In this document: piece by piece, positions 3,975 to 59,357 of the stretch
Layout of the letters: each line of letters begins with the position of its first letter
Numbering within the stretch: the stretch's first letter is position 1
NCBI RefSeq assembly: GCF_044324875.1
Contig: NZ_CP172185.1
Strand: one strand, 5' to 3'
DNA length: 64,000 bases
Origin: Escherichia coli
Lineage (GTDB): Bacteria; Pseudomonadota; Gammaproteobacteria; Enterobacterales; Enterobacteriaceae
Translations under genes and position numbers: made by a program
The notes under the pieces: model-generated
Told to the model about the DNA's origin: nothing
What the model saw: only the letters and a program-made list of their open reading frames with translations
Databases searched by the model: none

Positions 3975-4427
3975 ATGAACGTTATTGACAGCCGCATTCG
4001 TGATGTGAAATTTGGTGAAAATGTGAAAGTCGTCATGCCAGTAAACCTCTATGAATGTGAACTGGGGGATGATGTTTTTATCGGTCCCTTTGTGGAAATA
4101 CAGAAGGGATGCATCATTGGCAACCGGAGCCGAATTCAGTCCCACAGTTTCATCTGTGAGAACGTCATTTTAGGTGATGCCTGTTTCATCGGTCATGGCG
4201 TAACTTTTCCTAATGATCTGTTTAAGTGTGGTGGTCCCGATACCTCTGCAGAAAGCTGGATACGCATCGTATTAGGTAACACTGTAACAGTGGGTAGTGG
4301 AGCGACCATTTTAACAACAGAAATTTGCAGTGGAGCTGTGATTGGTGCTGGTAGTGTGGTTACAAAGCCCGTGCTGGTAAAAGGCGTGTATGCGGGTAAT
4401 CCGGCCAGACTTTTGAGAACGCTTTAA
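3975..4427 (+). CDS. hexapeptide-repeat (left-handed beta-helix) acyl/acetyltransferase
   Basis: 150-aa ORF with repeated [LIV]G-x-x-x-x hexapeptide pattern (IGNRSRIQSHSFI, IGHGVTF, VGSGATI, IGAGSVV). Confidence 0.6.
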   Translation: MNVIDSRIRDVKFGENVKVVMPVNLYECELGDDVFIGPFVEIQKGCIIGNRSRIQSHSFICENVILGDACFIGHGVTFPNDLFKCGGPDTSAESWIRIVLGNTVTVGSGATILTTEICSGAVIGAGSVVTKPVLVKGVYAGNPARLLRTL

Positions 4428-15412: not shown

Positions 15413-15885
15413 AGCATTGAGGCGTGATGTATAGCACGCCTCGTTCTGTCTGACAGTATTTTGTTTCCTGTGTATTTGGTCGTTTCAGGTCAACCTTTGT
15501 CGGGAGCCTGGCGTTGGTACCTGCTGAGGAAAGAGGGAACTGGACGCAGAGTGACAGTCTGCGAATTGCAGGAAGAGGATGCGAAAGTGTTCGCTTCTTC
15601 CATTGTGTCCCTGATTTAAATTCGGATACTCAAATCTGAAGCGGTGACTCGTATACGTGTGAGTCACCGGGACTACCGCTTGAGTGATGAAAAATAGTCG
15701 TGTTAACGCAAAGCTGAAGTGACACATCTTATTTCAGCGAATGCGTTTGACCGCCTTACTATACACTTTTGAGCATTCTCTTTTCCTGACGGAAACCACG
15801 AAGACGACAATCTTCTCGTCTATAACCTGATATACAAGGCAAAAAACCGTCAAGAGCAGGAGCAGGCGGTCCGCCAGACAGTCCA

Positions 15886-16206
15886 TTGCATAAGGCTATC
15901 AGCTATATCCTGAAACGACCTGATGAGCTGTGCCGTTTTCTGGATGATGGCTCTGTGCCACCGGACAACAATATCTGCGAACGAGCCATCCGCCCGGTCA
16001 CGCTGGGGCGAAAGGCATGGTTATTCGCAGGCTCGCTGATGGCCGGCAAACGCGCGGCACAGATAATGAGTCTTCTGGAAACAGCAAAGCGTAATGGTCT
16101 GGAGCCACATGCCTGGCTGACGGACGTACTGACGCGCCTGCCGGAGTGGCCTGAGGACCGACTGGCTGAGCTGCTGCCTCTTGAGGGATTTACCTTCTCC
16201 GGGTGA
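15886..16206 (+). pseudogene. IS66-family transposase TnpC, C-terminal fragment
   Basis: 106 aa with DNNICERAIRPVTLGRKAWLFAGS, parallel to the C-terminus of the intact TnpC at 23005-24543; no N-terminal part or companion orfs. Confidence 0.75.
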
Positions 16207-16324
16207 CACAACACCTGCCGTCAGGTCTTTGCACACCGGGCCATGGCCTGCTGTCGGGCGTTGAGCGCCTGACAGCGGGTTATTGAGAAAGTCAGTCACC
16301 ATGCGCCTGGCTGACAGTCAGGAC

Positions 16325-16545
16325 CTGCACGTCAGCGCCTCCCTTACCCTGGTCAGGACTTCACTGCCTGCCACAAACTCCCGTGTCAGTACTTCGCGGC
16401 CTGACGCGCTCACCCTACTCAGTCCTTCAGAGCCCGCCTCCGGTACCTGGCAAGGCAGACGCCGGGGCGCAATAAAATAAATCAACCATCGCAGGGCGGC
16501 GATCATTCGCAACAACCGCTGATGACGAGCCCAGAAACGTGTCAA
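16325..16545. repeat. copy A of a ~220-bp diverged non-coding repeat (second copy at 22395-22625)
   Basis: about 75 percent identity to 22395-22625, shared core AATAAAATAAATCA-CCATCGCAGGGCG-CGATCATTCGCA and paired internal direct repeats CCCTGGTCAGGACTTCAC / CCGTGTCAGTACTTCGC. Confidence 0.6.
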
Positions 16546-16554
16546 GACGATTTC

Positions 16555-16689
16555 ACCGGAACCGTTTACCCCAAGCAGAGCGGCAATAGATCCGCCTGGT
16601 ACTGTGAAGGATGCATCGCGCAGTGCTTTCTGCCCGTTTCGCCAGGTGACAGTAACGCCATTAACGACAATACCCGCAGATTGCATCAT
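16555..16689 (-). pseudogene. sitB: sitB 5' fragment (ABC transporter ATPase, truncated inside the Walker A motif)
   Basis: first ~45 codons resemble SitB-type ATPase (SFTVPGGSIAALLGVNGSG) then diverge into repeat A; start overlaps sitA stop. Confidence 0.6.
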
Positions 16690-17603
16690 TACTTCTCCCT
16701 TTTCCCGGCTTTAATTCCCTGCACCAGCGTACTGGTAGTAACCTTCAGAAGGTCGATATACGTAGGTACCGGGCCGTTTTCTGTGCTCAGGGAATCGACA
16801 TAGAGCACACCGCCGTAGTGTGCGCCGGTTTCACGCGCAACCTGACGCGCTGGTTTATCGGAAACCGTACTCTCACTAAATACCGCTGGGATATTATTTT
16901 TCTTCACTATATCAACCACTTTACGTACCTGCTGGGGTGTTCCTTGTTGATCGGCATTTATCGGCCACAGATAAAGCTCTTTTAGCCCCAAATCGCGTGC
17001 GAGATAAGAAAAAGCCCCTTCACTGGTGACCATCCATCTTTTATTCTCAGGGAGTTCAGCAATCTGCTTACGCAGGGGGGCAAGGGTTTGGGTAATCTTG
17101 GCTTTATAAGTATCGGCATTACGTTGGTATGTTTTTGCATTTGCCGGATCGTATTTTATCAACGCATCGCGAATATTATCGACGTAAATCAAAGCATTAT
17201 CTGGCGACATCCAGGCATGAGGGTTAGGTTTTCCCTCGTAGGGGCCTTCGGTGATCCCTACTGGCGTCACACCCGAAGAGACAATCACTTCTGGAACACC
17301 ACTGAGATGCTGGTAAAAGCGCTGGAACCACAATTCCAGATTCATACCGTTGGCGAGAATCAGTTGTGCCCCCTGCGCACGTTTAATATCGCCAGGGGTA
17401 GGCTGATACTCATGAATTTCTGCACCGGGCCTGGTTATGGATGAGACTTCTGCAGCATCTCCAGCCACGTTTTTGGCCATATCTGCGATGATGGTAAATG
17501 TTGTAATGACCTTGAATTTTTCAGTTGCACTCGCCTGAAATGCTATCGAGCAGGTGAGGGCGAGGCACCCCAGGAGCATGGTTACTTTTTTTATTGAGTG
17601 CAT
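16689..17603 (-). CDS. sitA: SitA, periplasmic Mn/Fe-binding protein of the SitABCD ABC transporter
   Basis: 304-aa ORF with signal peptide; recognised as the SitA/cluster A-I metal-binding protein family. Confidence 0.8.
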   Translation of the reverse strand: MHSIKKVTMLLGCLALTCSIAFQASATEKFKVITTFTIIADMAKNVAGDAAEVSSITRPGAEIHEYQPTPGDIKRAQGAQLILANGMNLELWFQRFYQHLSGVPEVIVSSGVTPVGITEGPYEGKPNPHAWMSPDNALIYVDNIRDALIKYDPANAKTYQRNADTYKAKITQTLAPLRKQIAELPENKRWMVTSEGAFSYLARDLGLKELYLWPINADQQGTPQQVRKVVDIVKKNNIPAVFSESTVSDKPARQVARETGAHYGGVLYVDSLSTENGPVPTYIDLLKVTTSTLVQGIKAGKREK

Positions 17604-17635
17604 AATTCAGTACCTATAGTGAGTAAAATTAGAAC

Positions 17636-17657
17636 AAACATAGCAACGGCTATGTTT
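17636..17657 (-). promoter_or_regulatory. MntR operator (palindrome AAACATAGC-AACG-GCTATGTTT) in the sitA promoter
   Basis: perfect inverted repeat matching the E. coli MntR box, 33 bp upstream of the sitA start. Confidence 0.7.
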
Positions 17658-17682
17658 TATAGCATAAGCTATACACAATGCA

Positions 17683-17697
17683 AATGATTATCATTAG
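17683..17697 (-). promoter_or_regulatory. Fur box-like site (AATGATTATCATTAG) in the sitA promoter
   Basis: 13 of 15 match to the core of the Fur consensus GATAATGATAATCATTATC. Confidence 0.55.
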
Positions 17698-18237
17698 TAA
17701 TTCAGACCCCAACACAGGCATTAGGTTGTTTCCTGCTGGCGATGTGGTATTGAGGAAAAGCGTAGGACAGATATCAGGCTTTGAAAGTAAGTGTTAAGTT
17801 AAGCGAACGCCGTATTGACGCTTATTTATTGGTGAGTACTACGTTCCATGGCAGGAGTTCGTCATATAGACGATTATCTCAGTAAACATATTTATCCCTC
17901 CTGATAATTGTCTTTAATGATATGTTTTTATTCTTTTTGAAATAACTCACAAAATGATAATCAGGTCTACACAGAAATGTGATACACATCTTGTTTTTTA
18001 AAGAAGAAAAATGACATTGCTCACATATTTATCTGGGTTTATATAAATAATGTAATTATTGTGAAAAGTAACTATTTGATTTTTAAGTATATATTCGCAA
18101 ATCAAATTAGTTAATATTTCAGAGAAATTAGAAGATCTTCACATTTATAAAATCAGAATGTGATTTTTATCTCGGTTTATTACTTGATGATAAAGTATTA
18201 AAGGTTTTAAATATTATGTTTGTATAGGAGTACAATT

Positions 18238-22394: not shown

Positions 22395-22625
22395 ATGGGG
22401 AATTTGTTAACGTCGCCCTTACCATGGTCAGGATTTCACGCCCTGTTACAAACACTCGTGTCAGTATTTCTTGGCCCTATTCAGTACTCCTCACTACCTG
22501 CCAACGACACCGCTAGGAAAAACGCCCGCGTGTAATAAAATAAATCAGCCATCGCAGGGCGCCGATCATTCGCATGCATCGCTGATGACGCGCCCAAACA
22601 AGCGTCAAGATGAGTTAACCTGAAC
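22395..22625. repeat. copy B of the ~220-bp diverged repeat
   Basis: aligned by eye to 16325-16545; lies between the convergent aldolase gene and the lsrK remnant. Confidence 0.6.
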
Positions 22626-22631
22626 AATTCG

Positions 22632-22968
22632 TTATAAGCCCGGTGCCTTCCACAAAGAAGTTGTCAACCCGTGATCGACCAAGCTCAACTGTTCCTGATA
22701 TACAGCCCGCCATTTTTCGAGCAATTCCTGATAAAGCTCATGTTTTCTTTTGTCCGGAACATGCTACCTTTCCCAGCTCACCAGGCATTCTCCCGTTTCG
22801 TCCATAGATGAGTAGATACCTGCCCCTACACCAGCAGCAATCGCACAGCCCAGTGCCGTTGCCTCTTTGACTACAGGAACATTAACTGGTAGCCCTGACA
22901 CATCAGCCAGAATCTGGCTCCAGAGTTCTCCTTTTGCACCACCTCCCGCAAATACCAGAGATGAAGGG
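22632..22968 (-). pseudogene. lsrK: lsrK (autoinducer-2 kinase, FGGY family) 3' end, distal piece, separated from the rest by the IS66 insertion
   Basis: reverse-strand translation ...[47 protein letters not shown]...[13 protein letters not shown]. Confidence 0.65.
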
Positions 22969-23004
22969 TAAGCGTACAGCGAGGGCCGTATTGACGGGGA
23001 TGTG

Positions 23005-24543
23005 TTATTCAGCTGGCAGTGCTATGCGCCACGGAAGCAGTTCGCTGACCCGGTTGACCGGCCAGTCTGCTATGACGCCAAGCACATGGCGAAGGTAGCT
23101 TTCTGGATCCACGTCATTCAGTTTGCACGTCCCTATCAGGCTGTACAGTAGCGCTCCCCGCTCACCACCATGGCCAGAGCCGAAGAACAGGAAGTTTTTA
23201 CGACCCAGACTTACCGCCCGCAGGGCATTTTCAGCGATGTTGTTGTCGATTTCCACCCAGCCATCGTTCGCATAGTACGTCAGTGCCGGCCACTGGTTAA
23301 GTGCGTACGCGAACGCCTTCGCCAACTCTGAGTGTCGCGACAGGGTCTTCATCTTTTCACGCAACCAGCTTTCCAGGGATTTCAACAGCGGTTTCGTTTT
23401 TCGCTGACGTTCAGCAAGCCGCTGCTCTGCCGGCATTCCCCTTATATCCGCCTCTATGGCGTACAACTGACCGATCTGCTCCAGGGCTTCTTCCGTCAGT
23501 GCTGACGGGATGCGGACGTGCACATCGTGGATCTTTCGGCGGGCATGAGCCCAGCAGGCAGCTTCCGTTATCCCACCATTGCGATACAGCTCGTTGAACC
23601 CGGCGTACGCATCCGCTTGCAGCACACCGCTGAAGCAAGCAAGATGAGTCTGCGGATGGATGCCTTTTCTGTCCGGGCTGTAAGCGAACCACACTGCAGG
23701 TGCCAACGCTGACCCGGCATTGCGGTCATCACGAACATACGCCCACAACCGCCCGGTCTTCGTCTTCTTATTACCCGGCATCAGTACCTGGACCGGGGTA
23801 TCATCGGCATGGAGTTTGCCGTCAGTCATGACATAGCCATGAAGCGCCTCTTCCAGCGGAGACAGCAGCCGGCAGCATGCATCCACCCAGCCCGACAGCA
23901 GTGAACGGCTCAGCTCCACACCTTGCCGGCCGTATATTTCTGACTGGCGATACAGCGGGGTGTGCTCTGCATACTTCGAGGTCAGCACGCGGGCCAGCAG
24001 CCCCGGTCCGGCGATACCCCGCTCGATGGGCCGCGAAGGTGCAGGTGCCTGCACGATGGCATCGCACTGAGTACAGGCATGTTTTTCCCGTACCGTCCGG
24101 ATAACCCGGAAGGCGCTACGCATCAACTCCAGCTGTTCGGCGGTATCCTCGCCCAGATAGCTCAGTGAACCGCCGCAGTTCGGGCAGCACGGCGCCGCAG
24201 GCAACAGTCGCTTTTCGTCACGGGGTAGTGATTCAGGGAACGGCTTACGGATGCGGGTCTGACGCAACGGACGCTGTACTGCCGGGTCATACACCCTACC
24301 AGTCAGCGTATCGCTCTCTTTCTGAAGCCGGTTCAGATCGGCTTCCATTTGTGCGATACGGCGGGAGACTTTTTCGGAACGACTGCCGAAGTTCATCCGG
24401 CGGAGTTTATCCAGCTGCGCCTGCAGATGGTCTATTTCGCGCTCCCGGTTGCTCAGCTTTTCCTGCAGGGCGTGGATCAGCGCTTCCTGTTCGGCCAGGC
24501 GCTGTTTCAGCAGGAAGATGTCGTCAGAAGAGATGTCGTTCAT
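23005..24543 (-). CDS. IS66-family transposase TnpC
   Basis: 512-aa ORF with zinc-finger-like CCPNCGG and C-terminal [12 protein letters not shown] segment. Confidence 0.85.
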
Positions 24544-24592
24544 AAGCCCGTATTTTACCGGGCTTATTCTGTGACAACCAGGATAAAGAGAT

Positions 24593-24940
24593 TTACAGCA
24601 TGGTCAGGGAGGTCAGCAGCCGCTTAGGCTGTCGCCAGTCGATACCTTCCAGCAGCATCGCCAGCTGCGCCTGTGTAAGGAACACTTTGCCATCACGGGC
24701 TGACGGCCAGGCGAAGCGCCCACGCTCCAGCCGTTTGGTCAGGAGGCACAGTCCGTCACCGGTGGACCACAGCAGTTTAACCTGACTGCCGCTGCGGCCC
24801 CGGAAAATGAAAACATGGCCGGACATGGGATCGTCTTTCAGCGCCGTCTGTACTTTCGCAGCCAGGCCGTTGAAGCCATTTCTCATATCGGTGATACCGG
24901 CAACCAGCCAAATTTTGGTCCCGGAAGGTAAAGGGATCAT
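24593..24940 (-). CDS. IS66 Orf2 (TnpB)
   Basis: 115-aa [33 protein letters not shown]... typical IS66 Orf2. Confidence 0.85.
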
Positions 24941-25338
24941 CGCTTCAGTTCCTGTATCAGCAGAGTCAGGAGCTTTTCGCTGACATTGCCATTGAAGCGG
25001 AGCGTCCCGTGCCGGAACGTTACCTCACAGCTGATACTGAGGGTTTCCGGGTCCTCTGCGAGCGATTCTGGCTGTTCGGCAGCTGCATCGAGAGTCACAG
25101 GAAGTAGCTGGGGGCTCTCTGAAGAAGGTAATAGCAGCTTTCCCTCGCGCCATTGTTGTCGCCATTTGAACAACAGATTGGCGTTAATGCCATTTTCAAG
25201 AGCAAGTTTTGAGATGGATATCCCGGGTTCACAGGAGGCAGCAACGAGCTGCTGTTTAAATTCGGGAGGATAATTAGGGCAGCCTTTTCGCCTGCCGGGA
25301 GTCACATTTTTCTGCATATCTGACACTTTGGTTCCCAC
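24937..25338 (-). CDS. IS66 Orf1 (TnpA)
   Basis: 133-aa ORF overlapping Orf2 start by 4 bp. Confidence 0.8.
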   Translation of the reverse strand: MGTKVSDMQKNVTPGRRKGCPNYPPEFKQQLVAASCEPGISISKLALENGINANLLFKWRQQWREGKLLLPSSESPQLLPVTLDAAAEQPESLAEDPETLSISCEVTFRHGTLRFNGNVSEKLLTLLIQELKR

Positions 25339-25409
25339 TACTTATTTGGTGGACACCACTTTGTCTAATTCGTCAGATTCTGACCAGACGGTTCAGGCTG
25401 TACGCTTAC

Positions 25410-25666
25410 GATGAAGGATGGATCCCTGTAAAATCAGCAATCTGCGACAAATTACATGTTGAAACAATGGCTGCATTCTCTTCCAAGGCGCGAAACAAAG
25501 TTGCCTTATTACATTTTTCCGGATCGATCGACAGGTTTAGAAATGAAGGAGCCGCGTGGTACCAACTTTTGAAACGCATCCTGTCAGAGAATATCGGCAT
25601 CACTCCCCATGCTCCTGCTGGTACACGGGAAGCCATTTCCTCCAGTAGTGTATAAGTATCGACTCC
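25410..25666 (-). pseudogene. lsrK: lsrK internal piece (5'-truncated); continues across the IS66 insertion
   Basis: [42 protein letters not shown]... matches the C-terminal third of LsrK; no N-terminal two-thirds present. Confidence 0.6.
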
Positions 25667-29250: not shown

Positions 29251-30349
29251 CAGGTGTAAGCTCCGTCTGTGACGTCTGGTGATAGTTGTCCAGTCTGGTA
29301 ACAATAGCGTCCATCTATACAGATGGACGCGAATGATGAATTTTCAGACAACAAGATATTGATGGTTTTCGTTTTTATCTGCCCGACGCATTACGTCTAA
29401 TATTCGAAGAACAATTATCTGTCTGGTTAATCGCTCATCAGTCAGGGCTAAGTCATTTCACCATCACGATTTCTTTTAACGATTACCCGAATGAGCAAAG
29501 TGAGGATGATGCCATGACGCAGGTCAGAGCGACCAGCACCGCGACAATTAATAAAACAGGAAGGCTGCGCGTTTCAGACAGTGATGTCAACATAAACTAT
29601 CAGTAACGTTAACTGCATCAGAAGCACAAGTATGGATTTTGCCATTGTGCAGAACGACTTGTCCATGGGAAATAATAAATTTAATAAAAAAAGAAAGATA
29701 TGGTTGCAAATAGTATAATATCCCGGGCAACGATCCTGATTTTCTCAATACATGTTTTCCTCACGTATTTGTTCTTCAAAGAGCAATCAGCATCTGTTAC
29801 TGAATGGTTGTTATAAGCATTAAAAGAATAACGGGAAGTCGGTGACGTGGGGATATGTCGCGTGTTGAATTATACAAAGGGCCGACATCTTCATGGTGTC
29901 GGCCAGTCATAAGTGCCAGATATTAACCGTCAGTTACAGGGGGTAACCGCAGGAAACAGGCTACGCTCCGGGTAACGGGTTATCAATAGTTACTTATTTG
30001 CTTAATTTAATTAATTTTGTTCTGCGTCATTGCGTTTCCTTACTGGTATAAATAATGATCGATTGCTTTTCGCATGAGCATCAGAATTTGTCGTAATTTG
30101 AGGTACTGTCGCTGCACATGCAGGAATATGGTTCTGTCAGCGACAGATTGCCGTTGCTGACCGGAATGTTCAGGCTGGATGGTGATATTACAACTGATAT
30201 TGCTGTGCTGATGGCAGAATGGTAAACGTTAAGTGCGCGTTCCAGGCAATGAAGGCAAACACGTCATGACAGCAACGCAAAACAAACCAAGAACGCGCAG
30301 TATTTTTTATCCCGAATGAAAGCGATTGTCCATATCCGGTAATAAATAT

Positions 30350-30601
30350 TCAGCAGTATGTAAAGTGCGGTTTGCCCGGCTCTGGTGGAAGGGGCTCCAG
30401 ATACACATCATCAACAAACACACACGGGAAGTTATCCACCGGGCAGCCTGCACGGTCAGCCATATCCCGCAGCGTCACACTGTGCTTCGCGACATCAATA
30501 AACACAACATCCGGTTCCATTTCATCGGGGATTCGCGTTGCGTGATGCATGATGCGATGGACTGAAGGGCAGTGCCGGTAACCAAAAACACGTATACGCA
30601 T
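30350..30601 (-). CDS. glutaredoxin-like small protein (putative)
   Basis: 83-aa ORF MRIRVFGYRHCPS... with a glutaredoxin-like beta1-CPxx layout; weak. Confidence 0.3.
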   Translation of the reverse strand: MRIRVFGYRHCPSVHRIMHHATRIPDEMEPDVVFIDVAKHSVTLRDMADRAGCPVDNFPCVFVDDVYLEPLPPEPGKPHFTYC

Positions 30602-30891
30602 GATGTACCTCCTGGTTGCAGGGTGACTGTATCATCAGACCTTATCATGCGTTTAAAAAATGTCCGGCAACTCACACTTTTCGGTAAGGAGGTGGCTATT
30701 ACTGCAAATGATGATGTCTCGGTTTTTATTTTTTATTCAATATTTTCATCCTGTTATTGTTATTATGTTTGTCCATACCCTGTGTGGTTCCCTGCGTATT
30801 CCGCTCTATTCGATCACGGATTGGCATCGAAGTCCGATCAGCGATTCGCATCCATTCGATCAACCGGGAACTTAACTTTTTCTACCGCTTT

Positions 30892-54203: not shown

Positions 54204-55469
54204 ATGGCGCTACCTGCAGAAAGCCTTATTGCGCATACGCTCAGAAAAATGAAGGCCAGCATGGCAGAGAAAGCCAGTCGTGAGGACGGGAGGATACGCA
54301 GTGGGCTGTTGTTTACCGGCAATGTTCACGATTCGTATCCCCGCAGGCTGTTGCTGGATACGCGCCTTTCTCCCCTTGATAAAACTGCGTGGATGATGAT
54401 TCGTCTGCATGCCCTGAATAATGAGGGCGCAGTATTTCCGACGTACGATGAACTGCAGTTACAACTGGCATCTCCCGGGCGCGGGAAGGCGTCCCGTGAA
54501 ACAGTGAGCCGGGTGCTGACAATGCTGCGGCTTACGGGCTGGCTGAGTCTGTGTAAGCGGGTCAGGGATGAAAAAGGGCGGGTCCGGGGGAATATTTACG
54601 CCCTGCATGATGAGCCACTGACCTGCTGTGATGCAGAAAAGTTTGACCCACGATACCTGGATATGGTTCTGGATACTGTGAGCAGGAGCCGGAACAAGAC
54701 AATCCGGCACACAGCCAGTGAAGTGCTCAGTGATATCAAAAATGAGCCCGGTATGCGGCATTACCACAGCCATATCACTCTGTTTGAATCGCGTATGGGG
54801 GCAGCACAGACACCTGGTCAGCTGGCGGCGCGTCAGCGGGTGAACCCGATGGTGAATGAAAACACAGGCAGAGAGAGTGGTTCGGATTCCGTACATACCC
54901 CTGCACCTGTCGTGCAGGTAAACGAACTCAGTGATCCATTAATCGAACTCAGTGAAAAACAGGAAATGAGCCCACTCAGTTCGGATTCCGTACTGCCTGA
55001 AAAATCAGCAACTTATTACTCGGTTCGGAAACCGAACAATTACGTACGTAATATCACACACAGTGTGATTAAAAATACGTACGTATTGCCTGAGTCGGTG
55101 AAATCGCAAATCAGCGCAGAAGACACGGACATGCTGACAAAACAACTGCAGGCGTTGCCGGAAGAACTGGCAGGTAGTGTGCTGAGCAGCCTGTTACAGA
55201 TGCTCAGCAAAAACACGCTCCAGAATCCGGTTGGCTGGATGCTGGCTGTGATGAAACTTGCGCGTGAGGGACGTTTTAATACGCCGGATATGTCCGTGCA
55301 TGAATCCCGGTCGCCAGCCCGTGCACCATATCAGCCTGTGTACAACCGTGATGAACGTGAACGTCGTCGCGGGAAAGTGGCGTCACCTGAAACGGTGAGC
55401 AACATTGTCGCAGAATTCCGGGCCAGCCTGAAACGTGCAAATGCTGCCCGTCTGGCGGCGCGTGTGTGA
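54204..55469 (+). CDS. ICE/pathogenicity-island replication initiator-like protein (STY4528-like)
   Basis: 421-aa ORF immediately followed by an iteron array. Confidence 0.5.
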   Translation: MALPAESLIAHTLRKMKASMAEKASREDGRIRSGLLFTGNVHDSYPRRLLLDTRLSPLDKTAWMMIRLHALNNEGAVFPTYDELQLQLASPGRGKASRETVSRVLTMLRLTGWLSLCKRVRDEKGRVRGNIYALHDEPLTCCDAEKFDPRYLDMVLDTVSRSRNKTIRHTASEVLSDIKNEPGMRHYHSHITLFESRMGAAQTPGQLAARQRVNPMVNENTGRESGSDSVHTPAPVVQVNELSDPLIELSEKQEMSPLSSDSVLPEKSATYYSVRKPNNYVRNITHSVIKNTYVLPESVKSQISAEDTDMLTKQLQALPEELAGSVLSSLLQMLSKNTLQNPVGWMLAVMKLAREGRFNTPDMSVHESRSPARAPYQPVYNRDERERRRGKVASPETVSNIVAEFRASLKRANAARLAARV

Positions 55470-55483
55470 TGGTTAAAAGTCAA

Positions 55484-55803
55484 TCTATGGCGCTACTGGC
55501 ACCATAGTACAAAAAATAAGCGATGGTGCCACTGGCACCATAGTACAAAAAATGAGCGATGGTGCCACTGGCACCACGGTATAAAAAATGAGCGATGGTG
55601 CCACTGGCACCACGGTATAAAAAATGAGCGATGGTGACGCTGGCACCATAGTACAAAAAATAAGCGATGGTGCCACTGGCACCACGGTACAAAAAATAAG
55701 CGATGGTGCCACTGGCACCATAGTACAAAAAATGAGCGATGGTGCCACTGGCACCATAGTACAAAAAATGAGCGATGGTGCCACTGGCACCATAGTATAA
55801 AAA
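55484..55803. repeat. iteron array: ~9 tandem 36-bp units each containing palindrome GGTGCC-ACT-GGCACC
   Basis: period 36 bp measured between successive GCGATGGTGCC starts (55520, 55556, 55592...). Confidence 0.85.
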
Positions 55804-58880: not shown

Positions 58881-58927
58881 GGTATTGACTTTCTTTGTGT
58901 GAGCTTTAAATATGGCAGGGCTAACTT

Positions 58928-59110
58928 GTCGCTCCGGCGACCACCAATGTTCCATAGTGGCCTGTGAGGAACGCCTTCGGGTGGCCCATGTCGCTTCAGC
59001 GACCACCAATGTTCCATGTGGCCTGTGAGGAACGCCTTCGGGTGGCCCACGTCGCTCCGGCGACCACCAATGCTTCATCTGACCTGTGAGGAGCGCCTTC
59101 GGGTGGTCAG
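58928..59110. repeat. three tandem ~61-bp repeats
   Basis: GTCGCTCCGGCGACCACCAATGTTCCAT-GTGGCCTGTGAGGAACGCCTTCGGGTGGCCCA x3 with a few substitutions. Confidence 0.8.
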
Positions 59111-59357
59111 TTTTACACCTCCTGAGCCTGAAAGGAGCTGTGCGTACTGAAGGGATATATTCCCGGAAGTACGGGCAAATCTGCACACCTTTGAGAGCAG
59201 ATGTCACTGCGGTTTTCCGTGATGATGAAGGCTTTTTTTACTGCACAGACAGCCGGAAATTCAGCTGATTCCGGCATCCCCGACGGGAACTATCACTCCC
59301 GTCAGGGCTGGTGATGTTCTCCGTCATATCTTTTTTTCACTCCATGGAGAAATCATC

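Follow-up and report, generated by a model that had tools for sequence, protein, structure and literature searches.

The sitA gene described here is very probably part of a decayed remnant of an island-borne sitABCD operon, cut by a rearrangement at a sequence that we call repeat A, and what is left of the operon is probably a redundant leftover. The window, by which we mean the whole 64-kb stretch of Escherichia coli DNA that was analysed, is a mosaic genomic-island region. In the account that we prefer, a rearrangement would have taken place where an old IS66-family element (repeat A) ends, replacing all that lay downstream of sitB codon 45; the Walker A lysine would thereby have been lost along with sitC, sitD, and the remainder of sitB, and a 1.2-kb piece with the promoter, sitA, and the 45 sitB codons would have stayed behind. 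Such a locus should import no metal on its own, and it is because related strains carry other sit loci that we consider the sitA remnant to be redundant.

The locus itself is made up of the following features:

16689-17603, minus strand: sitA, encoding the periplasmic Mn/Fe-binding protein of the Sit ABC importer, as an intact ORF of 304 aa.
16556-16689, minus strand: sitB remnant, comprising the first 45 codons and ending ...GVNGSG in Walker A (from alignment to intact sitB).
16318-16689, minus strand: chimeric ORF of 123 aa, in which 45 SitB residues are followed by 78 through repeat A (from the ORF list).
16556-16562, no strand: junction overlap CCGGAAC, 7 nt common to the end of repeat A and to sitB (from three-way alignments).

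An earlier sequence-only reading of this DNA had taken sitA to be intact, and the full-length reading frame agrees with this: the protein shares 98.4% identity with SitA from an intact E. coli operon (tblastn). In a comparison with proteins of known structure, the alignment with YfeA (5UXS) covers SitA residues 24-297 of 304 with an E value of 5e-124, and MntC and PsaA are likewise matched. SitA residues H64, H129, E195, and D270 align with His76, His141, Glu207, and Asp282, which are the site-1 ligands of YfeA (PMC5505154). The Pfam family ZnuA (PF01297) is on record for a protein identical to the SitA of the window. Given the full-length match and the four conserved ligands, we class SitA as a cluster A-I metal substrate-binding protein (SitA/YfeA/MntC; PF01297). 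Its N-terminus, MHSIKKVTMLLGCLALTCSIAFQASA/TEK, resembles a Sec signal with ASA at its end and is a putative export signal; the protein is most likely still exported.

The sitB start at 16689 and the stop codon of sitA share one base (TAATG). From here the window tracks intact sitB for 45 codons (MMQSAG...ALLGVNGSG), after which it reads E-I-V-L where intact SitB has K-S-T-L. The break, once aligned against intact sitABCD loci, falls between the Gly and Lys codons of Walker A, and the Lys codon and all later parts of sitB are missing; the sequence-only reading had likewise let sitB end after about 45 codons, inside Walker A, at repeat A. By the three-way alignments the last unambiguous base of sitB is 16563 and the last unambiguous base of repeat A is 16555, the very position at which that reading had begun its region. 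The 7-nt overlap between them sits in a 15-nt patch (16548-16562) at which the two parents agree at 13/15 positions. An overlap of 7 nt is not what simple transposition predicts.

The chimeric ORF is translationally coupled to sitA through the TAATG overlap and is devoid of ATPase motifs. NCBIfam PRK15056, the model for the Mn/Fe ABC ATPase, covers only its residues 1-50, for a model of 274, and scores 72 bits against a cut-off of 393; the family search of this ORF returned no match past the SitB N-terminus. Judged by the Walker A lysine, the Q-loop, the signature, and Walker B, the locus falls short of a complete SitABCD-type importer, as it holds SitB residues 1-45 only. When SitB, SitC, and SitD were run by tblastn against all 64 kb, nothing beyond the sitB remnant was found, and no SitC or SitD match in the window lay below E = 0.8, so that the claimed absence of sitC and sitD holds for the whole stretch. 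A locus whose ATPase gene breaks off at codon 45 and which lacks both permease genes is not a transporter.

What lies on the other side of the break, and at the far end of the sit piece, is as follows:

15874-16206, plus strand: C-terminal ~110 codons of an IS66-family TnpC, the N-terminus missing (from translation, PGAP, and Pfam).
16207-16562, plus strand: repeat A, 356 nt after the stop of the tnpC fragment, with a core of ~122 nt at 16441-16562.
22412-22625, plus strand: second copy of repeat A, 82% identical, in its native location with fba on one side and the 3' end of lsrK on the other.
17788-17864, minus strand: right end, 77 nt, of an ISEc23-like IS66-family element (from comparison with complete ISEc23 in L004 and L007).

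The sequence of the tnpC fragment is annotated by PGAP, in identical form, as an IS66-family transposase in L001 and L003, and the called fragment carries the Pfam domains DDE_Tnp_IS66 and DDE_Tnp_IS66_C. Repeat A also adjoins an IS66-family tnpC in strains AR_0085 and 673, and in diverged form on the pINV plasmid of EIEC, where an IS66 pseudogene and its 3' flank are 75-82% identical to the tnpC fragment plus the first 240 nt of repeat A. The AR_0085 copy of repeat A is 98.9% identical to ours, and its left flank is also that of the window (Rpn nuclease, RelE fragment, and IS66 fragment); on its other side comes an unrelated ABC ATPase gene (LivF/UrtE-like) of which only the final 33 codons are present. 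The intact island of AR_0085 has the second copy at the corresponding place. About 90 further E. coli strains have the last ~122 nt of repeat A, once per genome. Every copy loses similarity at the same base, after ...GAAC, and this common end is found in four different contexts, in two of which it adjoins truncated genes.

With moderate confidence, we take repeat A for what is probably the long region at the right end of an old lineage of the IS66 family. The canonical IS66 terminus GTAAGCG is absent from it; its end reads GTTCCGGTGAAATCGTCTTGACAC and has only GT... and the CGTNTTGAC motif in common with the ISEc8 and ISEc23 termini. Neither the E. coli genomes nor the scan of species representatives (100,044) yielded a complete copy of the lineage; in that scan the repeat core had a single match, on an E. 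coli-type contig that lies in a “Collinsella” metagenome-assembled genome and shares 99.6% identity with the O145 locus. At the window locus, the element to which repeat A would belong has lost its left end, and the 3' half of sitB beside a left IS end was absent in all 21 junction-bearing loci fetched. Since there is no canonical terminus, no complete copy, and no other half of sitB to be seen, the role of repeat A as an IS end is one that we infer.

Several other identities for repeat A were considered and set aside. As an RNA, it had nothing relevant in Rfam, either at the gathering threshold across the whole window or at E <= 1 for 16150-17900; folding of the minus strand gave z = 0.65, and the consensus fold of five copies was without compensatory pairs. 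As a tandem array, it offers a weak ~33-nt periodicity of a GTCAGGACTTCAC-like motif by eye, unsupported by Tandem Repeats Finder or the repeat finder. As a decayed ABC-ATPase gene, it was searched in six frames with NCBIfam, and the matches comprised only the last 33 residues, beyond the AR_0085 junction. An IS91-type end came into consideration because the copies end in GAAC; comparison with the IS91-family copy of pLH50-c-A gave only 10-nt chance words, and a Rep-type transposase stands beside none of the copies. The nature of repeat A is the sole point of some interest in this locus, its end being a recurrent breakpoint beside truncated genes.

The surroundings are those of an island that has been rebuilt repeatedly. 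AR_0085 carries the island intact and shows the ancestral layout: ISEc23, PTS IIA/IIB/IIC, kinase, fba, lsrK/R/ACDBFG, and further genes leading to sitDCBA, followed by an IS66 remnant, DoxX, dolP, yebF, and further genes up to an integrase. At the place of this IS66 remnant, which in intact sit islands is longer, the window has the 77-nt ISEc23-like end. Its terminal inverted repeat faces sitA, it includes the last tnpC codons, and it is cut at 17864/17865; beyond the cut comes native sequence from upstream of the PTS operon. The promoter, sitA, and the sitB remnant thus form a 1.2-kb piece between two inward-facing right ends, that of repeat A (as a putative IS end) and the ISEc23-like one. 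Elsewhere in the window, ISEc8 (22968-25409) splits lsrK with an 8-bp target duplication, GATGAAGG, and the dolP-yebF part of the island is found at 30.2-35.8 kb; the 64 kb contain no tRNA genes. Taken together, the ISEc8 insertion in lsrK, the ISEc23-like end, and the junction at repeat A indicate that IS66-family elements have reshuffled this island several times.

Two routes could lead to the junction. In the first, an element would have transposed into sitB, with the distal part lost afterward; in the second, illegitimate recombination would have taken place at the 7-nt (13/15) patch. The second route, by which the end of repeat A would have recombined with the Walker A coding sequence at a short stretch of near-identity (GTTCCGG[A/TG]AAATCG), with deletion or replacement of the intervening DNA and no IS transposition into sitB, is a serious possibility to which we nevertheless give the smaller weight. 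It draws on the exact overlap of 7 nt and the 13/15 match at the junction, and on AR_0085, which has both parents in direct orientation (repeat A at 2,796,321-2,796,670 and sitB at 2,975,180-2,976,007). The patches in that genome are direct repeats ~179 kb apart, and a deletion between them would give exactly the layout of ECCNB12-2, which runs Rpn, IS66 fragment, repeat A, sitB remnant, sitA, DoxX, and onward. However, the break coincides exactly with the natural end of repeat A, and three other contexts diverge at this same point, one of them at another truncated gene; a shared divergence point of this kind fits the terminus of a mobile element better than a random crossover. Moreover, the layout of the window, in which the PTS operon is kept beside sitA, would require further events after such a deletion.

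By whichever route sitB was cut, the control region of sitA has been left whole. It contains three elements:

17636-17657, no strand: MntR operator, a perfect palindrome AAACATAGC-N4-GCTATGTTT, 33 nt upstream of the sitA ATG.
17658-17673, no strand: second, shorter palindrome TATAGC-N4-GCTATA, directly adjoining the MntR box.
17680-17698, minus strand: Fur-box-like site ACTAATGATAATCATTTGC, upstream of the MntR box.

In the sense direction toward sitA the order is Fur-box-like site, small palindrome, and MntR palindrome. The sequence-only reading had named a perfect MntR palindrome and a Fur-box-like site, and both descriptions are apt. The MntR box has 0 mismatches and is the sole match in the window at <=3 mismatches, with 0.03 expected per window; it is unchanged in 24 sit loci, three intact operons among them. 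In the prophage-borne sit of ATCC 8739 (94% identical) it is likewise unchanged although neighbouring bases vary, and the small palindrome is kept in the loci compared, bar one base in ATCC 8739. The Fur-box-like site scores 15/19 against the 19-mer consensus and is the sole site in the window, on both strands, to reach at least 15/19. A search with the Fur consensus at <=3 mismatches does not let it pass, and “Fur-box-like” is therefore the right wording; its core, CTAATGATAATCATTT, is unchanged in every sit locus compared.

A simple sigma-70 scan upstream of sitA gave no strong promoter. Intact sit operons have the same promoter sequence, so this weak result holds for them equally. By eye, TTGCAT-16 nt-TATAAA is a candidate sitA promoter, and both operators would overlap it. 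According to a review (PMC3852070), sitABCD is repressed by MntR and Fur; a literature search with the sequence of the MntR box itself returned only unrelated papers. Because the operators in the window are identical to those of intact, working sitABCD operons, we infer that the promoter of sitA most likely remains active and subject to repression by Mn-MntR and Fe-Fur.

How long ago the operon was cut can be gauged from the sitA copies. The SitA protein of the orphan locus is identical to that of an intact sitABCD (L021), and most junction-bearing loci have sitA DNA identical to that of L021; two synonymous differences separate the sitA of the window from that of L021, and the copies as a whole differ by at most ~0.2%. 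Since the identical protein is found in an intact operon, the deletion downstream of sitB codon 45 is to be regarded as recent, and the suggestion of a recent deletion made from the sequence alone is well taken. A recent event accounts for sitA and its promoter being still identical to working copies.

The suggestion offered beside it, that of a binding protein without its transporter, is doubtful. Among 5,426 complete genomes, sitA is present in 2,355, at 1,679 chromosomal and 1,010 plasmid places. In eight of the nine complete chromosomes that bear the junction, sitA matches occur at two to three places, these being matches to sitA and not to whole operons; “orphan” is hence a term for the locus and probably does not apply to the cell. 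Three plasmids of junction-bearing strains, one from each (Br_112_kylling p1, pLH50-c-A, and pCM2-NDM), are free of sit genes in their first 50 kb. Going by the sitA counts, the cell probably holds a SitBCD elsewhere, and the remnant would then stand beside at least one working sit locus.

These same counts can be turned toward a different explanation, namely that sitA has been kept by selection as an orphan that feeds a SitBCD encoded elsewhere or buffers periplasmic Mn/Fe. If this were true, a SitBCD at another locus or on a plasmid would obtain an extra, MntR/Fur-controlled dosage of binding protein. The further sitA places in 8/9 chromosomes mean that a partner transporter may exist, and nearly every junction locus has kept sitA, the ligands, and the operators whole despite flanks that have been repeatedly rearranged. 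We nonetheless hold selection to be improbable, as copies that are at most ~0.2% apart, one of them identical in an intact operon, are too recent for intactness to show it: too little time has elapsed for an intact sitA to say anything about selection. Nor do the two split sitA calls help in either direction, as that of L011 comes from the loss of 1 nt in a G6 run, the assembly having further frameshifts too, and that of L014 is a run of N.

A decayed remnant, as we prefer to see this locus, should turn up in other genomes, and it does. The identical junction between the sitB remnant and repeat A is present in 9/5,426 complete E. coli genomes, which come mostly from chickens and in which PGAP calls the sitB piece an incomplete pseudogene, and at least 24 further contigs have the same junction. 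The exact chimeric protein of 123 aa occurs in 79 blocks of public assemblies, such as those of E. coli TA007 and TA008. The break does coincide with repeated sequence, where assemblers fail, so that one might imagine repeats collapsed or sequences wrongly joined at repeat A, and an intact sitBCD really at this place; this misassembly, which the sequence-only reading had named as what would overturn it, has next to no probability, as the junction recurs in nine independently finished genomes and at least 24 contigs of different projects, two of them longer than 5 Mb and with the exact gene order of the window, and the two repeat copies in the window (82% identity over 104 nt) are too diverged to collapse.

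The public remnants are 99.2-99.9% identical to the window across a module of 1,658 nt. Among them are ECCNB12-2, whose CQP61_RS18820 (sitA) and CQP61_RS18825 (sitB pseudogene) are the same remnant with an identical junction, and E. coli TA007, whose “sit2” protein likewise represents it. Most have DoxX-dolP-yebF upstream of sitA, as in the intact island. Unlike these, the window, L010, L011, and L014 have sitA joined to the PTS-fba-lsrK block: the gene order of the window (ISEc8, fba, PTS, sitA, sitB remnant, IS66 fragment, Rpn) recurs in all three, L010 differing from the window by 1 base in 1,658. The sit remnant is thus already annotated in public genomes and is a matter of ordinary operon decay in an IS-rich mosaic island.

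For those who survey E. coli genomes there is a practical side to this. Typing by PCR or gene presence that uses “sitA” as a marker for Sit will count the remnant as positive, although the locus encodes no transporter, and the remnant is found mostly in chicken-associated strains. The locus also serves as a textbook case of how IS-rich E. coli islands lose parts of virulence-associated operons.

It remains to place the locus among known systems. The closest of these is sitABCD, the Mn2+/Fe2+ ABC importer (reviewed in PMC3852070) of Salmonella enterica, Shigella flexneri, and APEC, with which the window has the same sitA gene and a promoter with the same operators; intact E. coli sit operons are 94-99% identical to the window sequence. 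Unlike sitABCD, the window has an ATPase gene that is cut at codon 45 and neither of the permease genes. YfeA of Yersinia pestis has its fold family and all four site-1 ligands in common with SitA. YfeA works with YfeBCD and is regulated in Yersinia by Fur alone (PMC3852070), whereas SitA in the window is without partner genes at its locus.

The promoter has its counterpart in that of mntH of K-12, which we used as the reference for the operator comparison. The layout is the same, with a Fur box that scores exactly as the sit site does (15/19), a CATAGC-type element, and, immediately before the start codon, AAACATAGC-N4-GCTATGTTT; the mntH MntR box has the half-sites of the sit box. The 4-nt spacer of the MntR box differs between the two promoters (CCGT/AACG versus AAAG/CTTT), and the element at the CATAGC place is in the sit promoter the complete small palindrome described above.

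Repeat A, which abuts the truncated sitB gene, has a core of about 122 nt that recurs both within the window and in L005 and L003, two comparison loci fetched from other genomes:

16441-16562 and 22504-22625, repeat A core in the window
4001-4121, repeat A core in L005
5235-5356, repeat A core in L003

Every copy ends in the constant ...GAAC, and the core is single-copy and intergenic in some 90 further E. coli genomes. Beyond E. coli, the sole find was one contaminant contig. Truncated ABC-ATPase genes adjoin the core in two cases, namely sitB in the window and a LivF/UrtE-like gene in AR_0085 (an E. coli genome with an intact sit island) and strain 673. An RNA-family search with the core gave no match, and no covariation was found among its copies. 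RNA-family matches did arise elsewhere in the window:

58927-59233, two neighbouring matches to the STAXI family RF01728 (61.6 and 66.3 bits)
1631-1747, ALIL pseudoknot RF01497 (116 bits)

A 61-nt direct repeat (58957-59078) overlaps the STAXI matches; the ALIL pseudoknot is an IS3-family element's frameshift signal.

A complete IS66-family element also lies in the window:

22968-25409, complete ISEc8-type element of 2,442 bp, inside lsrK

The duplicated target on either side of this element is 8 bp long, GATGAAGG (22960-22967 and 25410-25417), and the lsrK gene that it interrupts ends abruptly again at about 25671. Upstream of sitA lies a 77-nt ISEc23-like remnant, cut at 17864/17865 and joined to native DNA from upstream of the PTS operon. 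At the equivalent of window position ~17930, AR_0085 and seven other genomes carry a full ISEc23 in the same region upstream of that operon.

Farther along the window there is a repeat of another kind:

55487-55803, tandem array, 8.8 copies of the 36-nt unit ATGGTGCCACTGGCACCATAGTACAAAAAATGAGCG

The unit includes an 18-nt palindrome, and the array begins 18 nt past the stop codon of ORF 54204..55469, a pathogenicity-island replication protein of the STY4528 family. The array resembles a set of iterons from the origin of an SPI-7-type integrative element.

Within the 45 retained sitB codons, only one substitution is private to the truncated allele. All junction-bearing copies encode Leu (CTT) at SitB residue 39 (window 16575), whereas the three intact operons compared encode Val (GTT). 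In intact islands, the dolP-yebF-outer-membrane-protein block directly follows sitA-DoxX, but in the window it lies 13-18 kb from sitA (30231-30792 and 33432-35755), and an insertion of about 2.6 kb interrupts it.
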